DNA of 64,000 nucleotides, taken from NCBI GenBank assembly GCA_963734495.1, contig CAVTHK010000002.1, forward strand, positions 160,001-224,000, given 5' to 3'. Position 1 is the stretch's first letter; each line of letters begins with the position of its first letter. A program made the position numbers and the translations under genes. This DNA is from an uncultured Spirochaetota bacterium. Its GTDB lineage: Bacteria > Spirochaetota > Spirochaetia > SZUA-6 > CAVTHK01. The notes under the pieces are model-generated. The model saw only the letters and a list, made by a program, of their open reading frames with translations. It ran no database searches and was not told the DNA's origin. Shown piece after piece: positions 3,700 to 56,583 of the stretch.

Positions 3700-5007
3700 G
3701 GGCCGCGCCTATACGGCGGAGCGCTGGCGCTTGCCCGACGTCTCGCGGGGCTTGCCCGCTCCCTGGGGGTCTTGCCTGCCGGCTCCGCGCGGCGTCTGCG
3801 CGCCGGCGCGCGGCCCGCGGTCCGGCGGGCCTTGCCCGCGTTCAGCGAGTAGAAGCCGAGCATCGTCCCCGCCCAGACGACCAGCACGAGGTAGGTGTTG
3901 GCCTCTTCGGGCAGGATGACCGAGGTGATCGCCACCACGCTCAGGTAGAGGCTGAAGCCGTAGATCACGGCGAGGATGTGCCGCTCGCCCAGCCCGAGCG
4001 CCAGCAGCTTGTGGTGCAGGTGCTCCTTGTCCGGTGAGAACGGGTGGCGCCCCTGGCGCACGCGCCGGATGATGGCGGTCCCGGTGTCCATGATCGGGAT
4101 GATGAGCAGCGTAAACGGAATGATCAGGCTGCCCACCGTGGCCATCTTCGAGATGCCGAGCAGCGGAATCGTGGCCAGCGTGAAACCCAGGAAATAGGCG
4201 CCCGAGTCGCCCATGAAGATCCGCGCGGGCGGGAGGTTGTAGCGGAGAAATCCGGCGATGGCCCCCGCCAGCGACAGGGCGAGCAGCGCGGCCTCGAAGC
4301 GGCCCTGGATGAGGGCCACGACTCCCATCGTGAGCGACGCGAACAGGCTGATGCCGCCCGCGAGCCCGTCCATGCCGTCTATGAGATTGATCGCGTTCGC
4401 GATCCCGATGATCCAGAGGATCGTGACCGGGTAGGCGGCCAGACCGAGGGAGATCTTCCCGAGGTAGGGGAGGCTCACCGAGTTGATGAGAAAGCCCCCG
4501 CAGGTCACGATGCCCGCGGCGAGCACCTGGATCACGAGCTTGAGCGGCGCCCGCAGGGCGCGGAAATCGTCCGCGAGGCCCATGCCGTGGATCAGGGCCA
4601 TCCCGACGAGCATCGCGGCATAGTTGGGCTCGAGGATGCCCGGGCTGCCTCCCGGCTTCGCGATCAGGCGCACGATCGAGATCGCCACCGCCGCGACCAG
4701 GAACGAGACGAACATCCCGACGCCGCCGAGGCGCGGGACCAGGTTCGTGTGGATCTTGCGGTGGTTGGGCATGTCGTACCACCCGAACCTGTACGCAAGA
4801 CGCATGACCAGGGGCGTGAAGCAGAATACGTTGAGGAGCAACGCCACGATCCCTGCCGCGACGGAGCTTTGCCAGATGTTCATGGGGCCTGCTGCCGACT
4901 GTAGCACTGCGGGCGATCTGTCGCCACGCCCGGCAGGATACGCTCGACCGCGCCTGCTGTCAACGCTCAGGTTGACCGCGGCGCGCGCGATCGGCTACGG
5001 TAGCCGC

Positions 5008-6459
5008 ATGCAGGCACTGAACCGCCGCGTGTCAGGCGCGCCGCAGCCGCTGCCCGTCAGGGTCGTGCAGTTCGGCGAGGGCAACTTTCTCCGCGCTTTT
5101 GCCGACTGGATGATCGATCTCATGAACGAGCGCCTCGCCTGCGGGTACGGAGTGGCGGTGGTGCAGCCGATCGAGCGCGGGAACGCCGCCGCGCTCGCTC
5201 GCCAGGATGGTCTGTACACGACCGTGCTCGCCGGGCTGCGGGACGGCGAGCCGTTCGAGGAGCGGCGCCTGATCGGCTGCGTGAGCCGCGTCCTCGATCC
5301 CTACGAGGACTTCGAGGGCTTCCTGCGCCTCGCGGAGGAGCCCGGTCTCAGGCTGTGTCTTTCGAACACGACCGAAGCGGGCATCGCGTTCGACGAGCGC
5401 GACAGACCCGAGGGAGCGCCGCGCGTCTCGTTCCCCGCCAAGGTCGCGCTGTTCCTGCACCGCCGGTATCGCGCCCTGGGCGGCGGGCCGGGCACGGGGC
5501 TGGTGTTCCTTCCGTGCGAGCTCATCGACCGCAACGGGTCCGCGCTGCGGGAGCACGTGCTGCGCTACGCGGAAGCCTGGCGGCTGCCGGCCGCGTTCCG
5601 GGAGTGGGTGGATTCGAAGAACGCGTTCTGCAACACCCTCGTCGACCGGATCGTCGCCGGGTACCCCGCCGACCGCGCGGACCGGATCGCCGCCGAGCTC
5701 GGCTATCGCGACGAGCTGCTGGTCCTGGGCGAGAGCTTCCATGTCTGGGTGATCGAAGGTCCGCCGTCCGTCCGTGACGCGTTTCCCGCGGACAAGGCCG
5801 GACTGAACGTCCTCTTCGTCGAGAGCATGGCGCCCTTCCGCGAGAAGAAGGTCCGCATCCTGAACGGCGTGCAGACCGCGATGACCCCGATCGCTTACCT
5901 GTGCGGCCTGGAGACCACCCGCGACGCCGTCACGCACCCGGTCGTGGGCGCGTACGTGCGGCGGCTCGTCGAGCGGGAGATCCTGCCCACCGTGCCGGAG
6001 TCGGCGGGCGACTGCGCCGCGTACGCCGAAGAGGTCATGGAGCGGCAGCGGAACCCCGCGATCAATCACAGGCTGGCGGCGATCTCCCTGAACTCGATGG
6101 CGAAGTGGCGCACGCGGGTGCTGCCGACCGTGCAGGACTTCCTCGCCCGCAACGGACGGCTGCCGGAGGCGGCGGTCTTCTCGCTCGCGGCGCTGATCGT
6201 CTTCTACAGGGGCGAGCGCGGCGGCGGGAAGATCGCGCTCGCCGACGATGCCTTCATTCTCGATCTGTTCCGCGATGGATGGGCGGCCGTGCGCTCAGGC
6301 AGCCTCGACGCGGCGGGGCTCGTCGGCCGCGTGCTCGGCCTCGAGCGGCTGTGGGGGCCCGACATGAACGCGGTCCCCGGTCTCGCCGCGCTGCTCCGCC
6401 GCCAGGTGGAGCGGATCCTGAGCGAGGGGATGGAGCGCGCCGCGGCCGCCGCGGGATGA
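5008..6459 (+). CDS. uxaB: tagaturonate reductase (altronate oxidoreductase)
   Basis: VQFGEGNFLRAF, SNTTEAGI, PCELI, NTLVDRIV, KVRILNG, SLNSMAKW. Confidence 0.9.
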   Translation: MQALNRRVSGAPQPLPVRVVQFGEGNFLRAFADWMIDLMNERLACGYGVAVVQPIERGNAAALARQDGLYTTVLAGLRDGEPFEERRLIGCVSRVLDPYEDFEGFLRLAEEPGLRLCLSNTTEAGIAFDERDRPEGAPRVSFPAKVALFLHRRYRALGGGPGTGLVFLPCELIDRNGSALREHVLRYAEAWRLPAAFREWVDSKNAFCNTLVDRIVAGYPADRADRIAAELGYRDELLVLGESFHVWVIEGPPSVRDAFPADKAGLNVLFVESMAPFREKKVRILNGVQTAMTPIAYLCGLETTRDAVTHPVVGAYVRRLVEREILPTVPESAGDCAAYAEEVMERQRNPAINHRLAAISLNSMAKWRTRVLPTVQDFLARNGRLPEAAVFSLAALIVFYRGERGGGKIALADDAFILDLFRDGWAAVRSGSLDAAGLVGRVLGLERLWGPDMNAVPGLAALLRRQVERILSEGMERAAAAAG

Positions 6460-35470: not shown

Positions 35471-35601
35471 GTAAGAGGGAAGGGGAGTAGTGGGGAGAGG
35501 GGAGATCCACGGAAGGGTGGATTTCTCGAGATGCCCGTTGGTTCTTTTGGGATCGATCGCTGTGGGTATGATGCTGTCCCTTCGGGGACAGCAATTATAT
35601 C

Positions 35602-37153
<1,552 letters not shown>

Positions 37154-37330
37154 TAGAGAAAGCTTTTCGTAGAACCGGTAAAACGGACATCCGGTGTCCG
37201 CTTCTTCCGTCCTCCCCCTGGAGCGCCCCAAAGGCTCTCCACCCCATTACTCCCCTCCCTCTTTCTTGAAGTCTCCGCGGAGCTGAGGCGTGCGCGCTCG
37301 ATGCAGGTTGCTCCGCGGGGTGTTGCGCCG

Positions 37331-37404
<74 letters not shown>

Positions 37405-37552
37405 GCAGGGCCGGCGGTGATGGCCGGCGGCGCCGGGACAAAAGGGTCCTGCGCGCTCGTGGGCGTGGTTCTTTGACAGGTTCGAGGCTGGGTTGGGGGT
37501 GCTTGAGGGCACGATTGGCTCAGCCGTAAGGGAAGGGGACAGGAGTTAATAT

Positions 37553-40542
<2,990 letters not shown>

Positions 40543-40739
40543 TATTATCTTGTGTCCTTTCCCCCCCTGCGATGCAGGGGCCCCCGTGGGCTTTGCCATT
40601 CCCGACCTTCGGTCGGGACCAGGGCGCCCTGGCGCCCACGGGGCCCTACATCCTGTAGGGCTGTCCGACATAGGCGAGGCTCGCGCCTCGCCGCACAAGC
40701 CTGCCCGCCCGCGGGGCAGGGGCAAGACAGACACTCAAT

Positions 40740-40856
<117 letters not shown>

Positions 40857-40908
40857 TTTTTTTTATCCGCGCCGACGCGTGCCGCCGCCGCTTCCGCGGG
40901 GGCGGCGC

Positions 40909-43311
40909 CTACGCCAGCCCGTGCTCGACGCGGCTGATGTGTATGAGTTGCTGCTCCTCGCCGAGCATGACGAAGTAAGCCGACCAGCCGCCCATGCGGA
41001 CGCGCAGGTGGCGGTACTTCTCGGGCTCTTTCATGGCGCGCCTCAGCTCCTCGACATCGGTGACCGTGGCGGTGAGCATGTTGCCGCCGAGGTCGACGAA
41101 CGCGCGGATCAGGGCCGCCAGGCGGCGGGTGCCCTGCTCGCCGCGCATCCCGCTCGCGGAAAAGCGCAGGTCGATCGGCGCGCCGCCTGCGAGCTCGTCC
41201 ACGCTCATCTTGAGGTAGGAGTTGATCGCGGCGGTCGGCCCGGACACGTCGGCGCCGGCGGCGGGGGACAGGTTGGCGGCGATCGCCTCGCCGGCATGCC
41301 GCCCGTCCGCGCTCGCCGCGAGCTCCTTTCCGATCATCGCGTACCAGGAGAAGGTGCCGATCGAGCACGGGAAGATCACACCCGGGTGGCGCGAGGCGTG
41401 GGCGCGGGTGCGGTCGACGTACCAGCGCATCATCTCACGGCCGATCTCGTCCGCGGAATCGTCGTCGTTGGCGAAGCGCGGAGCGCGCGCGGCGAATCGG
41501 CGGCGCAGGTTCTCGAATCCCTGCCAGTCGGCATCGAGGGCCTCGAGGAGCTCGCCCATGGTCACCGCGCCCTGCTCGAAGACGAGCGTGCGGATCGCCG
41601 AGGCCGCGTCGACGGCGTTGGCCAGCGCCTCGCCCATCACGTGCCAGATGCGGTAGCGGGCGCCGCCGCGGATGATGTCCCGCTCGCGCGCGAGGCAGTC
41701 CAGGGTGAGGGCCGACAGCAGGGGGTTGTAGCGGAAACGCCCGTGGCTGCTGTGCTCGAGCGAGCCGCTCTCGATGCCGGACCCGATGTGGTCGATCCCG
41801 CGCTGCAAGTGCGTGTCCGCCTGCTGCTTCCAGGCTTCCATGAGCTGGTCAAAGGACTTCCACTCGCGCGGGTCGCCGGTGTCGAGCCCCATCTGCCCGT
41901 GGACGCGCGAGCGGCCCCTGTGCAGGGCGAGCTCGAGGAACAGCAGGAAGTTCATCCCCCGGATCAGCTCCTGGTCGCTGCGCCCCTCGATCATCGTCTC
42001 CCAGCAGTTGGAATTGGCGTAGTCGCGGGCGTCCTCGATCGGAACCCCGAGGGCGGCATAGGCGGGCGCGAGGACGTCGTCGTTGTTGATAAAGGGCATC
42101 CCCCCGCCGCCTTTGAGCACCTCCGCAGCCCGGTCCACGAGCTCGTGCGGCGAGCCCTTGTGCAACCGCAGCGTCACGACCGGCTGCGTCACCGCGAGCT
42201 TCTCCATGGCGTTCAGGCAGAGCCACGTGAGCTCGTTGGTCCCGTCGCTTCCGTCGGGCCTGATGCCGGCGAGCAGGAGGTTCTGCCCGAAGTGGTTGAT
42301 CGCATCGGCGGCGTCGGTCGCCTTGCCCGGCCGCTTGCGGTGCCCGGCCGCTTCGCTCTCGTCGGCGGTATCGACGATCATGACGGCGTCGGGGGGGCGC
42401 CCGGCCGCATCCGCGCCGGCGGCTTTCGTGTAGAAGTTCTCGCGCACGATCTGCGAGCGGTCGTTGAACCGCAGCCACAGACAGTCGATCAGCTCCTGCG
42501 CGGCTTCCAGCGTGATCGCGCCCGACTCGAGGTCGCGCCGCAGGCTGGGGTGGAGGTACTGGTCGAGGCGTCCGCAGGAGATCTTGGTGCCCGATACATG
42601 GAACGCGTGGTTCAGGAACCAGAAGGACTGCACCGCTTCGTGGAAGGATCCCGCCGGGTGCTCGGGCACGCGCCGGCACGCGGCAGCGATCCGCGCGAGC
42701 TCCGCGCGCCGCGGCCCGGAGGCGCCGGTGGCAAGCGCTTCGGCGAGCGCGGCGTAGCGGCGGGCAAAGCCGATGACGGCGCGGCACTCGATGCCGCAGG
42801 CTTCGAGGAACGCGAGCGTCTCGCCGCGTTCGGCGTCAGGCGGCCGGCGGCGGACTTCTTCAATTTTCTCCTCGATCTCCTCTATGACGCCGCCGAGCCC
42901 CTTGTCCATGAGGTCGTAGTAGTAGGGCGTCTTGTGCGAGAGGTGGTCCGTGATGGGAGCGCCGAGCCTGCGCGCCTCCGCGTGCTCGGCGGCGGTGGCG
43001 AAGTCCGGAAGCCCCGTGCGCAGCACCACCCCGTCGCGCAGGACCATGCCGACGACGAGGTCGTCGGCCTCGATCGCGATCGGGATCTCGCGCAGCAGCT
43101 TCTCGAGGGCCCGCGCGTGGCGCACCGCGAGCGGCGAGGCGGCGACCTCGGGGTCGTCGAGGACGGTGAGCTGCCTTCCCCACGTCACTTGAGGCCGAGT
43201 CATGCGGTCGCGCAGAACGGCGTAGAGCCGTTCCACGCGATCGGTGTGAGCCACGGCTGCGAGCGCGGCCGGCGCGAAGAGCGTTGTCCGTCCAGGTGAT
43301 GCGACTGCCAC
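40909..43311 (-). CDS. glycyl radical enzyme (PFL superfamily), substrate unknown, 800 aa
   Basis: SD GAGGAGG before GTG; QSFWF, GRLDQYL, DGTNELT, Cys loop DYANSNCWE, Gly loop LRVRMGGWSAYF. Confidence 0.92.
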   Translation of the reverse strand: MAVASPGRTTLFAPAALAAVAHTDRVERLYAVLRDRMTRPQVTWGRQLTVLDDPEVAASPLAVRHARALEKLLREIPIAIEADDLVVGMVLRDGVVLRTGLPDFATAAEHAEARRLGAPITDHLSHKTPYYYDLMDKGLGGVIEEIEEKIEEVRRRPPDAERGETLAFLEACGIECRAVIGFARRYAALAEALATGASGPRRAELARIAAACRRVPEHPAGSFHEAVQSFWFLNHAFHVSGTKISCGRLDQYLHPSLRRDLESGAITLEAAQELIDCLWLRFNDRSQIVRENFYTKAAGADAAGRPPDAVMIVDTADESEAAGHRKRPGKATDAADAINHFGQNLLLAGIRPDGSDGTNELTWLCLNAMEKLAVTQPVVTLRLHKGSPHELVDRAAEVLKGGGGMPFINNDDVLAPAYAALGVPIEDARDYANSNCWETMIEGRSDQELIRGMNFLLFLELALHRGRSRVHGQMGLDTGDPREWKSFDQLMEAWKQQADTHLQRGIDHIGSGIESGSLEHSSHGRFRYNPLLSALTLDCLARERDIIRGGARYRIWHVMGEALANAVDAASAIRTLVFEQGAVTMGELLEALDADWQGFENLRRRFAARAPRFANDDDSADEIGREMMRWYVDRTRAHASRHPGVIFPCSIGTFSWYAMIGKELAASADGRHAGEAIAANLSPAAGADVSGPTAAINSYLKMSVDELAGGAPIDLRFSASGMRGEQGTRRLAALIRAFVDLGGNMLTATVTDVEELRRAMKEPEKYRHLRVRMGGWSAYFVMLGEEQQLIHISRVEHGLA

Positions 43312-43325
43312 GGCGATCCCCTCCT

Positions 43326-44282
43326 CTATCCCCCGATGTGAATCTCGAGGCCGCTCGCGCGGCCGACGGCTGCGAGGCGATCCATGGTCCCGCCGCTCTG
43401 GGCCTGCGTCCCCTCGAGGGGGTAGCGGCGGCCGATCCAGCGATACTTGGCGGCGGCGGCGGCGTTGTAGGGCAGGAGCGTGAGCTCCCTGAATCCGAGG
43501 CCCGCGACAAAGGCCGCCACGCGCGCGATGTGGGGCTCGTCGTCGTTGACGCCGGCGATGCACGGCACGCGCACATGCACCGCCGGGTGGGAGGCCGCGA
43601 GCCGCTCGAGGTTGGCGAGGATCGTGTCGTTCGGAGCCCCGGTGAGGCGCGCGTGCGCTTCGGAGTCCATGTGCTTGACGTCGTAGAGGACGAGGTCCGC
43701 GGCGCTCGCGACCGCGGCGAGGGTCTCCCAGGGGGCATAGCCGCAGGTCTCGAGCGCGGTGTCGATGCCGTCCCCGCGGCACGCCCGGAGCAGCTCGCAC
43801 GCGAACTCCGGCTGCTGCGTCGGCTCACCGCCGCTCAGCGTCATGCCGCCGCCGCTGGCGCGGAAATAGGCGAGGTCGCGGGCGATCGAGCGCGCGAGCT
43901 CGGCGGCGCTCACGGAGCGGCCCGCCATCCGCAGCGCGCCCGGGTAGCAGACCGCGGCGCAGCGGCCGCACGCGGTGCACGCGGAGCGGTCGATGGCCGC
44001 GCGGCCGCCGGGGCCCGCCTCGTCCGCGAACAACGCGCCTTCGGGGCACTCGCCGAAGCAGAGGCCGCACGCGGTGCAGCGTTCGGGCTGGTAGATCAGC
44101 TGGGGCTTCGCGGCCTGGGACTCGGGGCTGTGGCACCACCGGCAGGCGAGCGGGCACCCCTTGAGAAAGACCACGGTCCGGATGCCGGGTCCATCGTGCG
44201 AGGCAAAACGGTCCACGTCCAGGACCAGGCCCCTGACCGCACGGGGGTCGCCTTCGCTTGGTTCCGCTTCAGGTTCGCTCAC
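43326..44282 (-). CDS. glycyl-radical enzyme activating enzyme (radical SAM with ferredoxin insert)
   Basis: HDGPGIRTVVFLKGCPLACRWCHSPE; two CxxCxxCxxxC motifs; TLSGGEP. Confidence 0.95.
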   Translation of the reverse strand: MSEPEAEPSEGDPRAVRGLVLDVDRFASHDGPGIRTVVFLKGCPLACRWCHSPESQAAKPQLIYQPERCTACGLCFGECPEGALFADEAGPGGRAAIDRSACTACGRCAAVCYPGALRMAGRSVSAAELARSIARDLAYFRASGGGMTLSGGEPTQQPEFACELLRACRGDGIDTALETCGYAPWETLAAVASAADLVLYDVKHMDSEAHARLTGAPNDTILANLERLAASHPAVHVRVPCIAGVNDDEPHIARVAAFVAGLGFRELTLLPYNAAAAAKYRWIGRRYPLEGTQAQSGGTMDRLAAVGRASGLEIHIGG

Positions 44283-44324
44283 TGATCCTCGATCGTAGCG
44301 CGACGGGCGGCGGGGTGTAAAGCG

Positions 44325-45368
44325 CTATGCGCGACCCTGCACGCCGCGGACCATCGCCTTGATCGTGCCGACTGCGAACGCTTCGGCTGCGCGCGCGCCG
44401 CCGACCATGCGCGGGAGGTGATCGGACATGACGGCTCCGTCGTAGTCGACGCCGTGCAGCGCCTCCATCACGCGATGCATGTCCATGTACCCGTCGTCCA
44501 GGAACGTCTCCGTGAAGCCTTCGGGCATCGGCGCCGTGACGTTGCGAAAGTGCACCTTGAAGAGCTTCCGCCGCTTCCCGAAGTACCGGATCGCCTCGAC
44601 GACGTCCTTGCCCATCGCGGTTCCGCCTTCGAGCCAGCATCCGGTGCAGAGGCAGACGCCGACGTTCGGGCTGTCCGCGATCTCGATCGCCCTCTTGTAG
44701 CCGGCGAACGTGCCGAAGAGGCAGCGGGGCACGCCCCCGAGCGGATAGACCGGCGGATCGTCGGGATGGATGCCGATGAACACCCCCGACTCCTCGGCCA
44801 CCGGGACGACCTTGCGGATGAACCAGGAAAAGTTGTCCCAGAGCTCTTCCTCGCTGTAGCGCCGGCCGTGCGAAAGCGGCTCGCGCCACTCCTGCCCGAC
44901 CCATCGCCCGACCGTCGGGCGATCGATGTGGAAGGCGCGCGCCACCGCTCCGCCGCGGATCGGCTCGGGCTCGCCGCTCCAGATGCCGTTCCCCATGTGA
45001 GCGTACGTGGAGTAGCGGATGCCCGCCTCGCCCAGGGCGCGGATGTAGGCCAGATACTCCTCGATCTTCGCGTCGCGGCCCTCGAGGGCGAGCGTCACCT
45101 CGGGCATGTTGTGGCATCGGAGGTTCCCGAGGCGATAGACCTTGAGCCCGTGCCGCTCGACGCGCTCGCGGAACGACGCGTAGCTCTCGGCCGGGCGGCC
45201 GTGCTGGTCGTGGGCCATCTCCGTCATGACCCACTCGACGCCGAGCTGCTGCACGAACCGGATGTCCTCCTCCGACGCGTCCCAGGCCAGCTTGGTGCCG
45301 ACCTGGATGCCCGGCCGGCCGGCGACGTAGCCGGGCACGGCCTTGAGCGGGTAGCCTTTTGCTTCCAT
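44325..45368 (-). CDS. mannonate dehydratase (UxuA)-like protein
   Basis: ELWDNFSWFIRKVVPVAEESGV.IGIHPDDPP, LCTGC, VHFRNV, ETFLDDG.MDM, DHLP. Confidence 0.8.
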   Translation of the reverse strand: MEAKGYPLKAVPGYVAGRPGIQVGTKLAWDASEEDIRFVQQLGVEWVMTEMAHDQHGRPAESYASFRERVERHGLKVYRLGNLRCHNMPEVTLALEGRDAKIEEYLAYIRALGEAGIRYSTYAHMGNGIWSGEPEPIRGGAVARAFHIDRPTVGRWVGQEWREPLSHGRRYSEEELWDNFSWFIRKVVPVAEESGVFIGIHPDDPPVYPLGGVPRCLFGTFAGYKRAIEIADSPNVGVCLCTGCWLEGGTAMGKDVVEAIRYFGKRRKLFKVHFRNVTAPMPEGFTETFLDDGYMDMHRVMEALHGVDYDGAVMSDHLPRMVGGARAAEAFAVGTIKAMVRGVQGRA

Positions 45369-45448
45369 GGGGATCCTTTCGCGCGTCGAGTATGGTCCGG
45401 CGGTCGCCGCCCGCGCAAGCCGGGCCTCTTTGGGATTAAGCTGAAGGT

Positions 45449-46387
45449 ATGCATCCGCTCTGGGGCCCCTACGGCCGCGCGGCCGCCGCGCTGGCCGCGC
45501 GCGTCGCGGAAAGCGGCGCCAACGCGATCTGGTTCCACGGCTTCGACCCGGAGGCGTTCGAGTCCTGCGCGCGCGCCGGCCTTGAGCCCTGCGTCGAGCT
45601 CAAGACGTTCCGCGCCGACTTCGCCGCGAGGCCCGACCTCGCGCCGATCGGCGTCGACGGGAAGCCGATCCGGTACGGCCGGCTCGTGCAAGGCGTGTGC
45701 CTGAGCCGGCGCGATTTCGTCGACGCGATCGGGGAGAGTCTCGAGGCGGGGCTCGACGCGTTCGCTCCGGCGGGCGTGTGGCTCGACTACCTGAGCTACG
45801 CCGGGTGGTTCGAGACGCCGGAGCCGGACCTGCAGGAGAGCTGCTTCTGCCGCGACTGCATCGCCGAGTTCTGTGAGGCCACCGGTATCGACGCAGGCAC
45901 GCCTGCCGGGATCCTGGCGCACCACGCGCAGGCCTGGACCGACCACAAGTGCCGGCGCATAGCGGCCTTCGCGCGCCGGTATGCGGCCATCATCCGGGCG
46001 AAGCGGCCGGGCTGCGTCGTCGGCGCCTACATGTGTCCCTGGACGCCGGCGGAGCACGACGGCGCGCTGCGCCGGATCTTCGCGCAGGACTACTCCCTGC
46101 TCGCCGGCGCGATCGACGTCTTTACGCCCCTGATCTACGCGCAGAAGAGCGGCCGCCCGCCGTCGTGGGCCGCGGAGCTCCTCGCGGGCTCGCGCGCCTT
46201 TGTTCCGCCGGGCGCCCGCGTGCAGCTCATCCTCGACGCGCTGGACTTTCCCGCGTCCATGGAGGCGGCGGCCGCATCGCCCGCCCGGTCGTACGGGCTG
46301 CAGATGTTCGGCGGCGCGTCCCTGTTCGAGGATCAAGACAGGCTCGCGGTCTGGACGCGACTCGTCACGCGCATGCGCGGCCGCTGA
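45449..46387 (+). CDS. hypothetical TIM-barrel glycoside-hydrolase-like protein (GHL10-like)
   Basis: VCLS, GVWLDYLSY, CFCRDC, AQDY, DVFTPLIY. Confidence 0.6.
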   Translation: MHPLWGPYGRAAAALAARVAESGANAIWFHGFDPEAFESCARAGLEPCVELKTFRADFAARPDLAPIGVDGKPIRYGRLVQGVCLSRRDFVDAIGESLEAGLDAFAPAGVWLDYLSYAGWFETPEPDLQESCFCRDCIAEFCEATGIDAGTPAGILAHHAQAWTDHKCRRIAAFARRYAAIIRAKRPGCVVGAYMCPWTPAEHDGALRRIFAQDYSLLAGAIDVFTPLIYAQKSGRPPSWAAELLAGSRAFVPPGARVQLILDALDFPASMEAAAASPARSYGLQMFGGASLFEDQDRLAVWTRLVTRMRGR

Positions 46388-47263
46388 TTACGGCTTCGGC
46401 TCCTTGCGCGCGACCCACGCCGTGGGGTTCTTCCATTCGTTCGCCTTCCACGGCATGTTCTTCGGCGTCACGAGCGGCAGGATTTCGCGGTAGAGCGCAA
46501 GGCGCTCCTCGCCGGTCATCGGCTGGAAGCTCTCGGCCACGGCCAGGTCCGCCTCCAGCTCCTCCATCTGGGAGCAGCCCACGATGACCGTGCTCACGGG
46601 GAGCGCGAGGGTGTATCGCAGGGCCCGATCGGCGACACGAACGAGCGCGCCGAGGGCGAAGACCTTCATGCCGATCGTGGCCACGCCGCGCGCGTTGGCG
46701 AACGGGAGGAGCTCCTCGGCGAAGCTGTAGACGAAGTGGTCGAGCGCCGACAGCGCGACGAGCACGCTGTCGAAGGGGAAGCGGCGCAGGGCCTCGATCT
46801 GGATCTGCGGGTCCGTGTGGCCGCTGATGCTGATGTGCCGGACCAAGCCTTCATCTTTTGCCTTGACCATGGCCTCGAGGACGCCGCCTTTCGCGAACCC
46901 GCTGTCCAGGTCCGGGAAGCTCTTGACGTTGTGCATCCGCCACTCGTCGACGTGGTCCGTCTGCAGGCGGCCGAGGCTCTGCTCGAGCTGCCTGCGCGCG
47001 CCGTCGCGCGTGCGGTCCGTCGCCTTGGTCGCGATCCACATCTCGCGGCGCCGCCGCTTCGCCACGAGGCCGACCCGCTGCTCCGACTGGCCCTCGGAGT
47101 AGGCCCAGGCCGTGTCGAAGTAGCGGATGCCCCGCTCGAGGGCGCGCTCCAGGATCGCGACCGCCTGCTCTTCGCCGCACCGGTGGGCGTCGACGATCCG
47201 CTGGCATCCGAGGCTCAGGATCGGGAAGCGCTCGCCGGTCCTGCCGAAGGGACGCGTATCCAT
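46388..47263 (-). CDS. aldo/keto reductase
   Basis: RPFGRTG, GIRYFDTAWAY, ATK, LEQSLGRLQTDHVD, ISGH. Confidence 0.88.
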   Translation of the reverse strand: MDTRPFGRTGERFPILSLGCQRIVDAHRCGEEQAVAILERALERGIRYFDTAWAYSEGQSEQRVGLVAKRRRREMWIATKATDRTRDGARRQLEQSLGRLQTDHVDEWRMHNVKSFPDLDSGFAKGGVLEAMVKAKDEGLVRHISISGHTDPQIQIEALRRFPFDSVLVALSALDHFVYSFAEELLPFANARGVATIGMKVFALGALVRVADRALRYTLALPVSTVIVGCSQMEELEADLAVAESFQPMTGEERLALYREILPLVTPKNMPWKANEWKNPTAWVARKEPKP

Positions 47264-47357
47264 GGTCGGGCCTCCTTTACGGCCCGGCAGCATAGCCGCG
47301 GCCGGGCGGCGTGTCCATGCTCTTGATCCGTGCGCGCAAACGGGTGATGATCGCGCC

Positions 47358-50754: not shown

Positions 50755-51013
50755 TTACGAACTCCTTTCGGCTTCGACGCCGTCATTCAGTGGGACCATT
50801 CTACACGAATTGCGTCCTCGCGCAACCCACGCGGGCAAGCCTACCTGAAACCTCGGCATATCTCACCTTTGGCTGGAGCCCCCGGCGGCGGGAAGCGGGC
50901 GACTGGGGAGGATCCGGCCACGCGCTGCGCAAGCTCTGCAAGTCTCGTCTGATCTTTCAGCAAGCGTTCAGAAAACTCTTGACTCGAGCGTCGCCCATGA
51001 GAACAATTGAGCC

Positions 51014-52036
51014 GTGAGCAAGCTTCCCGCAGCGCCCACCCTGGATGACGTGGCGCACCGCGCCGGCGTGTCGCCCGCTTCGGTCTCGCGGGTGCTGAAC
51101 GGCGTCGGCCCGACGAGCACGGCCCTGCGCGATGCCGTACGGAAAGCCTCCGAGGAGCTGGGGTACGTGCCGCGCCGCTCCCGGCCCTCGGGCGCGCGCC
51201 CCGTCGTCGCGGTGCTGACGCCGGACCTGCTGAACCCGTATTTCAATGAGATCATCCGCGGCATCGAGGAGCGCGCCTGGATCGCCGGGCTGGTGACGTC
51301 CGTCATGGAGGTCGCCGGCAGCCCGGACGCGGGCGGCGCCGCGGCCGAGTGGCTGAGCTCCGAGCGCGTAAGGGGCACTGTGGTCTTTGGCGGCATCTTC
51401 TCCAACGAAGAGCTGAAAGCGTTTGCCGCCTCGCGCACCGATCCGCTGGTGGCCATCAACCAGGTCATCGAGGACCGGGACATCCTCTGCATCAACATCG
51501 ATTACGCGACCGCGATGCAGCAGGCGACCACGCACCTGTTGGAGCTCGGGCACCGGCGGATCGTGTTCGTGGGGAGCGAGAGCTCGCTGACCTCCGAGGC
51601 CAAGGTGCGCGGGATCCGGCAGGCTATGGCCCTGAGGGGGCTCGAGCTCGCCGACGAGGACATCCTCCACGGGGCGGGGACCGTGGAGTGGGGGTTCCAG
51701 GCCACGAGCGCGCTGCTGGCGAGGCCGCCGGAAAAGCGGCCCACGGCCGTCATCGGCGCCAGCGACCTGATCGCCCTCGGAGTGCTGCACGCGGTCCGCA
51801 GCGGACAGCTATCGGTCCCGCGCGACGTCTCCGTCGTCGGCTTCGACGACATCGCCATGGCGTGCCACGCCAACCCGCCTCTCACGACGATCTCCGCGCC
51901 CAAGCCGAACATGGGCCGCCTGGCGGTCGACCTGATCCTGCGCGGCGGCGACGCGAAGCCGCTGGCGCTCTCGAGCTTCATCATGCTCGAGAGCCCGCTC
52001 GTCGTGCGCGAGTCGACGGCCCGCGTGGCCGGGTAG
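51014..52036 (+). CDS. LacI-family transcriptional regulator
   Basis: TLDDVAHRAGVSPASVSRVLN, LGHRRI, VPRDVSVVGFDD, PPLTTI, LVVREST. Confidence 0.93.
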   Translation: MSKLPAAPTLDDVAHRAGVSPASVSRVLNGVGPTSTALRDAVRKASEELGYVPRRSRPSGARPVVAVLTPDLLNPYFNEIIRGIEERAWIAGLVTSVMEVAGSPDAGGAAAEWLSSERVRGTVVFGGIFSNEELKAFAASRTDPLVAINQVIEDRDILCINIDYATAMQQATTHLLELGHRRIVFVGSESSLTSEAKVRGIRQAMALRGLELADEDILHGAGTVEWGFQATSALLARPPEKRPTAVIGASDLIALGVLHAVRSGQLSVPRDVSVVGFDDIAMACHANPPLTTISAPKPNMGRLAVDLILRGGDAKPLALSSFIMLESPLVVRESTARVAG

Positions 52037-52054
52037 GCGGCCCCCGGCCGGCGG

Positions 52055-53527
<1,473 letters not shown>

Positions 53528-53532
53528 CTATT

Positions 53533-53563
53533 GCTTGACAGCGGTCAAGCGCGGGCGGATTAT
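53533..53563 (+). promoter_or_regulatory. promoter of the ABC operon with a palindrome over -35
   Basis: GCTTGAC-AGCG-GTCAAGC containing TTGACA; GATTAT 17 nt downstream. Confidence 0.55.
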
Positions 53564-53591
53564 TCTGGGGCAATACTCCGGAGGAGGTGTC

Positions 53592-54854
53592 ATGAGAAAG
53601 CTCGTTTTGCTCGTAGTCATCGTCTCTCTGAGCGGGATCGCCTGGGCAAGCGGCGGACAGGAAGGCTCCAAGGGTCCCGTCACGCTGACCTGGTGGGCGC
53701 TCGACTTCAACAAAGGGCGCGAAGGCGATCTCGCCAAGAAGTACATGGATGCCAACCCCAATGTGAAGATCTCCGTCCAGCAGAACACGTCGCTCGGCCT
53801 GCAGGACAAGGTGCTCGTGGCGCTGCAGTCCGGGTCCGTTCCCGACATCATCGACATCCAGGCGGGCTGGAACATCCCGTACGCCAGCACGGGGCAGGTG
53901 CTCGCTCTCGACAGCTACATCGCCAAGTCGACGGTGGTGAAGAAAGAGGACTTCTGGCCCGCCAACTGGAACTCCGCGAACTACAACGGCAAGGTCTACG
54001 GCGTCCCCTACCGCGCCGAGTCCCACGGCTTCATCTACAACAAGAAGCACTACACGCAGGTCGGCCTCGACCCGAACCAGGGCCCCAGGACCTGGAAGGA
54101 GCTGATCGCCAACGCGCAGAAGCTCACGCGGACCGCCGACGGCAGGAAGATCTACGGCTACGCCATCTGCGGCGGCGGCGAGATCGGCAACATGATCTTC
54201 AACATGGTGCCGCAGATCTGGGCCAACGGCGGCGACGTGCTCTCGGCCGATTACAAGAAGGTCACCATCAACGAGCCGGCCGCGGTCGAGGCCGTGCAGT
54301 TCTACACGGACTTCTACACCAAGTACCACACGTCGCCGGACACGACGCTGCAGAACGGCGGCAACCAGAATCGCGACCTCTTCATCCAGGAGGTGGTCTC
54401 GCAGTTCCAGAGCGGCTCCTACGTCATCTCGGTGGCCAGGGCCGGCAATCCCAACATGAAGACCGACATGGGGTTCGCGATGATCCCGCCTCCCGAGGGC
54501 AAGAAGCCGGCCGCGGTGCTCGGCGGCTGGAACTTCATGATCCCGCAGAAGACCGCGAACGCCAACGCGGCGTGGAAGCTCGTCGAGTGGCTGGCCCAGC
54601 CCGACAACATGGCGTACTACACCGACACGTTCCCGGCGACGGCCTCGGCCATGAAGAACGCGAAGTTCTCGGATCCGGAGCTCAAGCCGTTCATCGACAT
54701 GCTGCCCTACACGCACATCAGCCCGCCCCTCAAGGGGTGGATCCAGATGCAGGCGGCCATCTTCAAGGAGGTGCAGAACGTCCTCCTCGGGCAGAAGCAG
54801 GTCAAGCCGGCCATGGACGACGCGGCCGCGGCCATGACCAAGCTGCTCGACTAG
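53592..54854 (+). CDS. sugar ABC transporter substrate-binding protein
   Basis: SD GGAGG; spirochaete-type WASGGQE signal; YNGKVYGVP, YNK, GGW. Confidence 0.9.
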   Translation: MRKLVLLVVIVSLSGIAWASGGQEGSKGPVTLTWWALDFNKGREGDLAKKYMDANPNVKISVQQNTSLGLQDKVLVALQSGSVPDIIDIQAGWNIPYASTGQVLALDSYIAKSTVVKKEDFWPANWNSANYNGKVYGVPYRAESHGFIYNKKHYTQVGLDPNQGPRTWKELIANAQKLTRTADGRKIYGYAICGGGEIGNMIFNMVPQIWANGGDVLSADYKKVTINEPAAVEAVQFYTDFYTKYHTSPDTTLQNGGNQNRDLFIQEVVSQFQSGSYVISVARAGNPNMKTDMGFAMIPPPEGKKPAAVLGGWNFMIPQKTANANAAWKLVEWLAQPDNMAYYTDTFPATASAMKNAKFSDPELKPFIDMLPYTHISPPLKGWIQMQAAIFKEVQNVLLGQKQVKPAMDDAAAAMTKLLD

Positions 54855-54885
54855 CGGGCGGCCGGCCGAACGGGGAGCGTGAGTC

Positions 54886-55762
54886 ATGCGGCACCGGGGC
54901 TCGGGCTACGGGCGTCGCGGCGGCGTGGCGTTCACGCTCCCCGTCACTCTCTTCCTGCTCACCTTTATCGCGTTCCCCCTGTTCTTCAACGTGCAGCTGA
55001 GCTTCGTCTCGAACGGGCATTTCGCCGGGGCCAAGTACATCAGCGCCGTGCTCACCGACGCAACGATGTGGGACTCGCTGCGGATCACGGCCATCTATGT
55101 CGTCGGATCGGTCGTGTTCCAGATCCTGCTCGGGACCGCCGTGGGCATCGCTCTGGACCAGGAGTTCTACGGAAGGGCCGCGGCGCGCAGCATCACGCTG
55201 ATCCCTTGGGTGGTCCCGGGGGCCGTAGCCGCGACGACGTGGGCGTGGATGTACCACGGGGATTTCGGCATCGTCAGTCGCGTGCTGATCGAGCTCGGGG
55301 TGGACATCGCCCGCAAGGGGCTGCTCACGGTGCCCTCCACGGTCCTCGGCGCGTTGATCCTCGTCAACGTCTGGAAGATGTTCCCGTTCGTGGCCGTCAT
55401 GGTGCTCGCGGGCCTGCAGGGCATCGACCGCAATCTCTACGAGGCGGCCAAGGTCGACGGGGCGACCTTCTGGCAGGAGGTGCGGCATGATCACGATCCC
55501 GAACCTCCGCCACGTCCTGCTCTCCGTGCTTCTGTTGCTGACCATCTGGGGGGTCAACAGCATCACGCTCATCTACACGATGACCGGCGGCGGCCCGGCG
55601 GATCTCTCGCTGATCCTGCCGCTGCACGTCTACCGGATGGGGTTCCAGTTCTTCAACTTCAACGTGGCCGCTGTGGAGTCGCTCTTTCTGTTCGTCATGC
55701 TCGCGGCTCTGATCGCAGTCTACTTGAGCCTGTTCGGGGAGCGCGAGGAGCGCCGCAGATGA
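54886..55762 (+). CDS. sugar ABC permease, frameshift near 55487
   Basis: LIPWVVP, LAGLQGI..LYEAAKVDGA, then ITIPNL...TGGGP in the next frame. Confidence 0.87.
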
Positions 55763-56583
55763 AGCGACGGCCGCGCGTCGGGCTCCACGCCTTCATGATC
55801 GTCGTTTGCCTCTTCAGCCTCTTCCCGTTCGTGTGGATGATCACGACGTCGCTCAAGACTCTGGGCGACATTCACTCGATCCCGCCGAGGCTGCTGCCGA
55901 AGCAGGTGACGGTCGAGAGCTACGGCAACGTCTTTACGAAGTCGAACATCCCGCGTTACTTCATCAACAGCGCCATCACCTCCACCGGGGCCACCGCGAT
56001 CGCGCTGGTCTTCGCCGTGCTGGGCGGGTACGGGTTCTCGCGCTTCCGCTTCCGGGGCCGCGGCCTGCTGCAGACGGCGGTGCTCTCGGCGCAGATGATG
56101 CCGACGGCCGCGATCATCGTGCCGCTGTTCATCATCCTGCGGTCCATGGGGCTGCTGAACACCTACCTGGGATTGATCCTGGCCTACCTCATCATCACGC
56201 TGCCGCTCAGCGTCTGGATGATGACCGGCTACATCCACTCGATCCCCGTGGAGATCGAGGAGGCGGCGACGATCGACGGCTGCAGCCGCCTGCGGGTCCT
56301 CACGCGCCTCGTGATCCCCATCTCGATGCCGGGCATCGTGGCCACGGCCGTGTACTCGTTCGTGGTGACCTGGAACGAGTTCCTGCTGGCGCTCAGCCTC
56401 GCGACGGACAAGAAGGTCATGACGCTGCCGATCGGCCTGGCGGAGTTCACCAAGGAGTACGTCACGGACTGGGGCGCTCTCATGGCGGGCTCGGTCATCA
56501 TGACCCTGCCCATCGTGGTCGCGTTTTTCGGGCTGCAGCGCGCGTTCGTGAGCGGACTGACCGCGGGCGCGACCAAAGGATAG
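55759..56583 (+). CDS. sugar ABC permease
   Basis: IPVEIEEAATIDGC, WNEFL, TLPIGL, GLTAGATKG. Confidence 0.92.
   Translation: MKRRPRVGLHAFMIVVCLFSLFPFVWMITTSLKTLGDIHSIPPRLLPKQVTVESYGNVFTKSNIPRYFINSAITSTGATAIALVFAVLGGYGFSRFRFRGRGLLQTAVLSAQMMPTAAIIVPLFIILRSMGLLNTYLGLILAYLIITLPLSVWMMTGYIHSIPVEIEEAATIDGCSRLRVLTRLVIPISMPGIVATAVYSFVVTWNEFLLALSLATDKKVMTLPIGLAEFTKEYVTDWGALMAGSVIMTLPIVVAFFGLQRAFVSGLTAGATKG

Follow-up and report, generated by a model that had tools for sequence, protein, structure and literature searches.

In a 64,000-nt stretch of contig CAVTHK010000002.1 (GCA_963734495.1) from an uncultured Spirochaetota bacterium, which we refer to as the window (G+C content, ~70%), we studied an accessory module of three minus-strand genes that includes a gene for an oxygen-sensitive glycyl radical enzyme (GRE). 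No class of radical enzymes is growing faster than the GRE eliminases, and new GRE substrates, including choline, hydroxyproline, isethionate, 2,3-dihydroxypropane-1-sulfonate (DHPS), and anhydro-sugars, have opened up anaerobic metabolism. We consider it likely that the module encodes a glycyl radical 1,2-eliminase of an uncharacterized family together with its dedicated activase, and that the UxuA-like dehydratase encoded beside them probably acts in the same carbohydrate-derived route. The three genes encode the UxuA-like protein (44325-45368; 347 aa, ATG start), a GRE-activating radical S-adenosylmethionine (SAM) enzyme (43326-44282; 318 aa, GTG start), and the GRE (40909-43311; 800 aa, GTG start at 43311). 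They are separated by gaps of 42 bp (44283-44324) and 14 bp (43312-43325). The first-pass annotation of this DNA had described the same three genes with the same gaps. An AGGAGG motif 8 nt upstream of the GTG at 43311 supports the 800-aa start; a longer, 963-aa open reading frame (ORF) is a stop-to-stop artifact that runs into the activase gene. As had also been remarked, neither microcompartment nor small-subunit genes accompany the GRE: the three-gene cluster has no room for a small-subunit gene, and the shell protein family PF00936 has 0 matches in the whole host assembly (83% complete).

Judged by profile and PDB scores, the GRE lies outside every characterized GRE clade. This placement rests on NCBIfam cut-offs, PDB bit scores, and Foldseek identities, and the tree presented below covers only the family and its sister group. 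The scores of the GRE against NCBIfam equivalog models were all far under the respective cut-offs: HpsG, 370 bits (cut-off, 1000); HypD, 359 (1100); HpfG, 313 (1000); CutC, 310 (1050); PflD-type, 301 (1109); IAD, 229 (1100); HPAD, 171 (1150); and PFL, 72 (994). Even the broad PFL2-3 subfamily model gave 428 bits against a cut-off of 678. The best sequence matches in the PDB were CutC (359 bits), 1,2-propanediol dehydratase (PD; 340 bits), glycerol dehydratase (GD; 327 bits), the PD structure 9rco (323 bits), HypD (318 bits), and IslA (303 bits). Lower matches included IseG, HpsG, YbiW (271 bits), PflD (264 bits), HpyG, HpzG, and HplG, as well as an arylacetate decarboxylase (7e7l), MasD, BSS, HPAD, and PFL. 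An AF2 model of the GRE (pLDDT, 82; pTM, 0.86; pLDDT below 50 in the Cys loop) has the ten-stranded barrel fold of GREs as predicted, with Foldseek TM scores of 0.75 to 0.79 to more than 30 GRE structures at 21 to 28% identity. The earlier observation that this GRE could not be matched to a characterized one is borne out by these comparisons. In its Pfam content the protein is a regular GRE, scoring 439 bits for PF02901 and 69.6 bits for PF01228.

A June 2026 review names as characterized eliminases and isomerases GD, PD, HpfG, HypD, HpyG, HpzG, CutC, IslA/IseG, HpsG, HplG, YbiW, and PflD, each of which is included in our comparisons, and describes whole clades and all archaeal PFL-like GREs as still without a function (PMC13450708). 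Searching open-access papers and bioRxiv, supplements excluded, we found no publication that assigns this GRE family or a GRE acting as a glycerate or sugar-acid dehydratase. The family is one of the known function-less GRE clades, and a specialist would be interested rather than astonished by it.

The residues predicted to carry the radical chemistry are all in place. Gly775, the predicted radical residue, lies in the motif R-V-R-M-G-G-W, which HMMER aligned with R-V-A-G-Y of GD and PD; R772, G774, G775, and W776 are invariant among 35 aligned sequences. The Cys loop reads N433-S-N-C436-W-E438-T, in which the invariant C436 aligned with the loop Cys of GD, PD, CutC, and HypD, and C436-W437-E438 aligned with the catalytic Cys-x-Glu (CXE) of the same four enzymes. 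His126, on strand beta1 next to Lys127, is invariant in the family and was aligned by HMMER with GD His164 and PD His166. According to the review, CXE is kept by all characterized GRE eliminases and isomerases, the dehydratase His is the proton donor, and the corresponding GD residues are His164, Cys433, and Glu435 (PMC13450708). The beta1 site contacts the substrate in IslA, CutC, and HypD, according to another paper (PMC8473560). Two of the three sulfonate-anchor positions (Arg, Gln, and Arg) of the C-S lyases IslA/IseG/HpsG could be mapped onto the family: the beta1 Gln site is His126, and four residues before it, where IslA and HypD have Arg, the residue varies (D122 in the window GRE). 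We take GD His164 to occupy the same beta1 site as the residues of IslA, CutC, and HypD. A His at beta1, as in dehydratases, favors an oxygen leaving group. The GRE is most likely a 1,2-eliminase of the CXE dehydratase type, a mechanism class well supported by the sequence.

Beyond these catalytic residues, we observed a signature that sets the family apart, composed of H126, K127, N339, H340, G342, N433-E438, Q447, E448, R451, G452, G652, T653, S655, and W656. All 51 full-length family rows among the 54 aligned retain it, including those of the Bacillota clade, whose members are only 41 to 47% identical to the window GRE; of the remaining rows, those of L050 and L070 cross a frame break close to the C terminus, and L086/L087 represent a sister family. 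The family also has a specific insert of ~45 residues (roughly 289-341) ahead of an invariant N-H-[FW]-G-x-N. We infer that one chemistry serves the whole family and that its pocket is larger and more polar than that of GD or PD. Compared with known enzymes, the window GRE resembles PD (5i2g, 9rco) and the GD DhaB1 (1r8w) in its fold, radical Gly motif, Cys-x-Glu loop, beta1 His, and ferredoxin-insert activase, but differs in its loop (N-S-N-C-W-E-T rather than x-x-G-C-V-E-P), its 25 to 28% identity, its ~45-residue insert, and its freedom from a microcompartment. With CutC, HypD, IslA/IseG, HpsG/HpfG, and HpyG/HpzG it has in common the CXE chemistry and the activase type, and a G-T-[FL]-S segment on a later strand resembles CutC; the CutC Asp, IslA Gln, and IslA Arg positions, however, are not kept, and the NCBIfam scores for this group reach 310 to 370 bits against cut-offs of 1000 to 1100.

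A mechanism can be proposed from the chemistry common to all CXE-type GREs. The activase would cleave SAM and put a radical on Gly775, from where the radical would move to Cys436. The Cys436 thiyl radical would then take a hydrogen atom from the hydroxyl-bearing carbon of the substrate, with Glu438 accepting the hydroxyl proton and His126 protonating the leaving group (most likely OH or the oxygen of an ether or glycoside) on the neighboring carbon. The product radical would regain a hydrogen from Cys436 to give a carbonyl compound, most likely an aldehyde, all without a microcompartment. The gene that immediately follows the GRE in other hosts would handle this aldehyde, be it an aldo/keto reductase (AKR), a CoA-acylating (methyl)malonate-semialdehyde dehydrogenase (MMSDH), or an enzyme resembling tartronate-semialdehyde reductase or 3-hydroxyisobutyrate dehydrogenase (HIBADH).

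The two partner proteins could be assigned to broad classes. The activase matches PF04055 (radical SAM) and several Fer4 families in Pfam, scores 326.6 bits against TIGR02494 (cut-off, 174), and contains CX3CX2C at C43-C50 and CX2CX2CX3C at C69-C79 and again at C102-C112. These are the two extra cluster motifs to which the first-pass annotation had drawn attention, and they identify the protein, at the level of sequence, as a ferredoxin-insert activase whose insert is predicted to hold two [4Fe-4S] clusters. An activase gene adjoins the GRE in 50 of the 65 family loci that we collected. The UxuA-like protein matches PF03786, as E. coli-type D-mannonate dehydratase UxuA does, with 147.9 bits against 23.7 (best stretch, profile positions 164-325 of 352), and PF01261, the xylose-isomerase-like TIM barrel, with 68.5 bits. 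Unlike UxuA, it remains under both NCBIfam UxuA cut-offs (TIGR00695 uxuA, 92.2 versus 199.55; PRK03906, 125.8 versus 191), and we regard it as a putative aldonate dehydratase and no equivalog of E. coli UxuA. Homologs 65 to 81% identical to it, labeled mannonate dehydratase, occur in metagenome-assembled genomes (MAGs) of Anaerolineae and Omnitrophota.

The GRE belongs to a sizeable family. A protein search with the GRE returned 387 matches, the best 120 of which are all at least 56% identical to it and score at least 988 bits; the sources of these 120 are SAR202 and other Chloroflexota, Bathyarchaeia, and Spirochaetaceae MAGs, and most of the proteins lack a name or are labeled formate C-acetyltransferase or choline trimethylamine (TMA)-lyase. 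Scanning species-representative genomes gave 55 loci, which together with metagenome loci made up the 65 distinct family loci. The metagenome scan itself yielded 79 loci, 14 of them of the GRE family (4 duplicating genome loci), and none of these 79 held a relative above 66% identity. We then considered a tree of 60 rows (52 of the 54 alignment rows, with L050 and L070 excluded, plus 8 database matches), rooted on L086/L087. One branch is a Bacillota clade, 41 to 47% identical to the window GRE, with Hungatella, Lachnospiraceae, Oscillospiraceae, gut and termite MAGs, and one record labeled "Spirochaetia"; the other contains Chloroflexota, Bathyarchaeota, Spirochaetota, and Gemmatimonadota. 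The window GRE groups with four database proteins (95, 82, 79, and 69% identity), and the sister of this group (SH-aLRT, 93) consists of three Spirochaetaceae MAGs and one Gemmatimonadaceae MAG. A genome of the same order, G011, has a GRE that is only 58 to 59% identical and falls elsewhere in the tree, and we found no orthologue in the same-genus genome G001 (99% complete). The divergent copy in the one and the missing orthologue in the other indicate a patchy distribution.

Some loci of the collection are of separate interest. The sister family (L086, at 3850-6198, and L087) is 35 to 36% identical, has a G-C-W-E-T loop and H-F in place of H-K, and is likewise under all NCBIfam cut-offs. In a Bacillota MAG (L055:1270-2388), an insertion sequence element (DDE_Tnp_IS240 / rve) lies between activase and GRE. 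The host genome (G000) has four GRE loci in all, and its copies on contigs C4 and C6 are also under all equivalog cut-offs. A PFL-like Pfam match at G000:C1:277304-279638 (L001, L005) is split over two frames (profile positions 2-471 and 470-647); this split gene is a frameshift or an assembly error.

We next considered what the neighbors of the family might reveal about its product. The Bacillota operons are compact, with genes for a CUT1 ATP-binding cassette (ABC) transporter (some with a DUF3502 substrate-binding protein [SBP]), a YesM/YesN-type sensor kinase, an AraC-type response regulator, the activase, and the GRE. The next gene after the GRE encodes an AKR at 6 loci, a CoA-acylating MMSDH at 4, and a 2-hydroxy-3-oxopropionate-reductase/HIBADH-like enzyme at 1. 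Among the 13 Bacillota loci with at least 1 kb downstream, 10 have such an aldehyde gene in the same orientation, either overlapping the GRE or no more than 150 bp from it; these 10 are kin, and judged on the tree they represent ~5 to 6 independent associations, which lessens their weight. Two MMSDHs score 568 and 560 bits, where the cut-off is 448.5, and the tartronate-semialdehyde-reductase/HIBADH-like enzyme scores 432 bits, where it is 397. Also, DhaK/DhaL genes occur in 4 loci, a gene for a YqhD-like iron-dependent alcohol dehydrogenase (Fe-ADH) precedes the activase in 1 locus, and a glycerate-2-kinase-like gene and Zn-dependent dehydrogenases lie nearby in Bacillota loci. With its AKR, YqhD-like ADH, MMSDH, HIBADH-like, and DhaK/DhaL genes, the Bacillota clade thus resembles the dha regulon and mmsAB-type aldehyde handling, although the likeness is one of gene content alone and the aldehyde genes are absent from the window module. 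The aldehyde-handling genes behind the Bacillota GRE suggest an aldehyde product, and their names point to an aldehyde of the C3 semialdehyde type.

Outside the Bacillota, the neighborhoods take other forms. In the window's subclade they consist of carbohydrate genes, with GHL6/GH42M and ABC permeases (L035) or two GH4 genes and a BNR protein (L027), and loci of Dehalococcoidales have a major facilitator superfamily (MFS) transporter and a sulfatase. Across 50 non-Bacillota loci, a corrinoid protein is encoded within 6 kb of the GRE in 6, a uroporphyrinogen decarboxylase (URO-D)-type methyltransferase in 4, and a sulfatase within 6 kb in 4, 2 of which also have an MFS transporter beside the GRE. 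The loci with a corrinoid-binding protein gene, which here lies within 5 kb of the GRE, belong to SAR202, Chloroflexota, and Bathyarchaeia (L018, L019, L048, L039, L043, and L045), the first four of these also being the loci with the URO-D-type methyltransferase; those from SAR202 add FAH-family and DAO-type oxidoreductases, and other SAR202 loci have FAD oxidoreductases. MR/MLE sugar-acid dehydratase genes stand beside the GRE in 7 of the 50 loci. We considered them as a non-orthologous replacement for UxuA and rejected them, as this adjacency is near the chance rate; five Chloroflexota genomes of 1.8 to 5.6 Mb (L018, L020, L025, L026, and L066) have 29 to 61 matches each to MR_MLE_C of the enolase superfamily. 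The strong differences between clades count against our preferred reading, and mean that the substrate either differs among clades or is a hub metabolite.

Taken with the predicted chemistry, these neighborhoods lead us to a tentative best guess for the substrate, namely a C3 vicinal-diol unit, with glycerate being converted to malonate semialdehyde or glycerol to 3-hydroxypropanal. Malonate semialdehyde would arise from glycerate by the same 1,2-elimination that gives 3-hydroxypropanal from glycerol, and sugar-acid routes that employ aldonate dehydratases such as UxuA end in C3 vicinal-diol units. In a bolder version, which we think unlikely to hold, the family would dehydrate a glycerate-type substrate by radical chemistry or would act as a lyase on a glycerate or glycerol substituted at 2-O, for example, a glycosyl-glycerate compatible solute, in the reaction HOCH2-CHOH(OR)-COO- to malonate semialdehyde.

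Three other chemistries have to be weighed against a new 1,2-eliminase. The GRE could be a divergent but otherwise ordinary B12-independent glycerol or 1,2-propanediol dehydratase that forms a separate, microcompartment-free clade. Its best fold and sequence matches include PD (9rco, 5i2g) and GD (1r8w), the triad of His and Cys-x-Glu is common to both, the Bacillota loci resemble the dha regulon in having DhaK/DhaL, a YqhD-like Fe-ADH, an AKR, and a CUT1 ABC transporter, and deoxy-sugar or uronate routes could yield lactaldehyde or glycerol. Identity, however, is only 25 to 28%, and the residues by which GD binds glycerol, which we take to be Ser282, Tyr339, Asp447, and Tyr640, are not kept: they correspond to K243 (variable), G342, a gap, and G652, so that two bulky aromatics are replaced by invariant Gly residues. 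This loss argues against plain glycerol, including as one half of our own best guess. Together with the lost aromatics, the added invariant polar residues N339, H340, N433-N435, Q447, E448, and R451 suggest a larger, more polar, and possibly anionic substrate. Moreover, the adjoining aldehyde dehydrogenase is of the malonate/methylmalonate-semialdehyde type and not PduP-like. An ordinary GD or PD therefore seems improbable to us. We hold it to be distinctly improbable that the GRE is a lyase with a non-oxygen leaving group, cleaving a C-N, C-S, or C-P bond as in CutC, IslA, or HpsG, with a methylated amine, a sulfonate or sulfate ester, or a phosphoester (glycerol 3-phosphate or a glycerophosphodiester) as substrate. 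Such a lyase would suit the corrinoid protein, URO-D-type methyltransferase, sulfatase, and MFS transporter genes near some non-Bacillota GREs, the top PDB sequence match is a CutC, and the CUT1 transporters include the Ugp type (a weak UgpB match). Yet the beta1 residue is His as in dehydratases, not Asp (CutC) or Gln (IslA), the Arg position of IslA and HypD is variable, and the CutC, HpsG, and HpfG scores (310 to 370 bits) fall far short of cut-offs of 1000 to 1050.

Least probable of the three, in our estimation, is a GRE isomerase of the YbiW/PflD type, which would open a cyclic ether or an anhydro-sugar, yielding a deoxy-ketose with no net elimination; YbiW and PflD are anhydro-hexitol-6-phosphate isomerases. 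As described in the review, isomerases keep CXE too, and YbiW and PflD act on sugar-derived substrates without a microcompartment (PMC13450708). Several loci have sugar transporters and glycosidase-like genes (two GH4 genes and a BNR protein in L027; GHL6/GH42M in L035), and DhaK/DhaL would fit a hydroxy-ketone product. But the YbiW and PflD structures are no better matched than others (25% identity; 271 and 264 bits), the family loci we examined have no adjoining aldolase or phosphotransferase system (PTS) genes, with no aldolase gene seen in any of them, and the neighboring enzymes are specific for aldehydes, not ketoses.

A further alternative leaves the assignment of the GRE as a 1,2-eliminase untouched and concerns its partner: the UxuA-like gene may be a passenger, co-transferred with the activase and GRE genes and serving ordinary hexuronate or aldonate catabolism. 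One line of evidence on this question comes from the extent of the module (40864-45448; 4.6 kb), which is present in the window and missing at the same site in G001. There, bases 1-51 of contig C99 match window positions 40813-40863, the 3' end of the 5S rRNA, at 86%, and bases 116-398 match 45449-45731 at 79%, with 64 bp between the two matches; synteny between G001 and the window runs on to window position 50767. Thus, exactly three genes (~4.6 kb) were gained or lost as a single unit, and a functional link between UxuA and GRE stays plausible on that account. The order UxuA-like gene, activase, and GRE also recurs in the Spirochaetaceae MAG locus L035, where an AKR gene stands ahead of the three. 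The two GREs are 62% identical but the UxuA-like proteins only 40%, a low figure for a conserved partnership, though one that suggests recruitment over mere inheritance. Moreover, G000 has just 3 UxuA-like copies in 5.4 Mb, which makes a chance adjacency unlikely.

Several findings weigh on the side of a passenger. Among the 43 family loci with at least 2.2 kb upstream, only L035 has a UxuA-like gene within 6 kb of the GRE; at L020, a 31%-identical UxuA-like copy lies 7.5 kb from the GRE on the other strand. With 5174 matches, the UxuA-like family greatly outnumbers the GRE family, and most of its members work without a GRE. Within the same order, a UxuA-like gene (at most 45% identity) is present in 15 of 41 genomes, many of them without this GRE; in family f7, all 6 genomes carry the UxuA-like gene and none of the 6 carries the GRE. 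A promoter-like site, TTTACA-18-TACGAT (44292-44321, minus strand; a pattern match only), lies within the 42-bp gap and splits the UxuA-like gene from the activase; it could give the activase and GRE genes a separate, predicted start. Our scan for consensus promoters found 2 sites against 0.3 expected. Two close relatives have UxuA-like proteins from the same 90% cluster as that of the window, on contigs of 8,889 bp (NCBI) and 55,199 bp (ENA), and GREs 95 and 89% identical to ours are on contigs of the same sizes and sources, which shows co-location, not adjacency. The linkage is therefore confined to the window, these two relatives, and L035, and the lack of conservation among homologs, which the first-pass annotation had named as grounds for rejecting its proposal, is largely what we found. 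The UxuA link is a local one, specific to a lineage within a widespread GRE family, and the three genes are not the defining operon of a pathway. Of the sugar-acid or polyol route proposed by the first-pass annotation, a carbohydrate-derived substrate still fits the family neighborhoods, whereas the three genes are not supported as a pathway-defining operon. On balance, we consider a mere passenger rather unlikely and retain the UxuA-like dehydratase as a probable member of the same route as the GRE in this organism.

Both genes beyond the upstream end of the module belong to the conserved backbone, being present in G001, which has no GRE. An AKR gene (46388-47263, minus strand; 291 aa, ATG start with AGGAGG upstream, PF00248) was considered as a pathway member and rejected: besides occurring in G001, its product shares only 24% identity with the L035 AKR (over 163 aa) and can hardly be aligned with the AKR of the Hungatella operon, and so is not orthologous to the operon AKRs. 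The window AKR is probably outside the GRE route. Another promoter-like site (47289-47317) is just upstream of its start (ATG at 47263). Between the AKR and the module, a gene for a 312-aa protein of unknown family (45449-46387, plus strand) is divergent from the UxuA-like gene; in view of its conservation in G001, it too was considered as a pathway member and rejected. The protein has no Pfam or NCBIfam match, and its language-model neighbors, a lead only, suggest that it is possibly a GHL10/DUF4015-like, glycosidase-like barrel.

At its other end, the module is bounded by a 5S rRNA gene (40741-40856, plus strand; Rfam), with which the GRE gene is convergent, its stop codon lying 52 bp away. 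This gene closes a complete rRNA operon on the plus strand (35599-40856) with 16S, spacer tRNA (37331-37404), 23S, and 5S genes. The insertion point of the module is 7 bp past the region homologous to the 5S end in G001. A search for flanking repeats gave only chance-level matches; a 21-nt, 81% inverted pair at the module ends (40912-40932 and 45382-45402) is one of 78 such pairs and is probably due to chance. Farther along the window, a LacI / GH1 / SBP sugar-uptake locus occupies 51014-56583; within it, a 565-aa ORF (54886-56583) with two BPD_transp_1 stretches is either a fused ABC permease pair or two genes read through.

The interest of the module lies in the breadth of its GRE family and in the product hypothesis, which make it a good but not exceptional target for enzyme discovery. 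The family is large, is sharply defined by its Cys loop, and is found in archaea (Bathyarchaeia), in the abundant marine SAR202, and in gut Bacillota, and from its operons a concrete product can be proposed, a C3 semialdehyde. Once a substrate is assigned, hundreds of genes now labeled formate C-acetyltransferase or choline trimethylamine-lyase could be annotated. If the proposal of a glycerate-type radical enzyme were true, it would reveal a hitherto unknown way of converting sugar acids or compatible solutes anaerobically to acetyl-CoA or 3-hydroxypropionate, common to SAR202 of oxygen-minimum zones, Bathyarchaeia, soda-lake spirochaetes, and the Bacillota of gut and termite, and in this organism the route would be coupled to a UxuA-like aldonate dehydratase.

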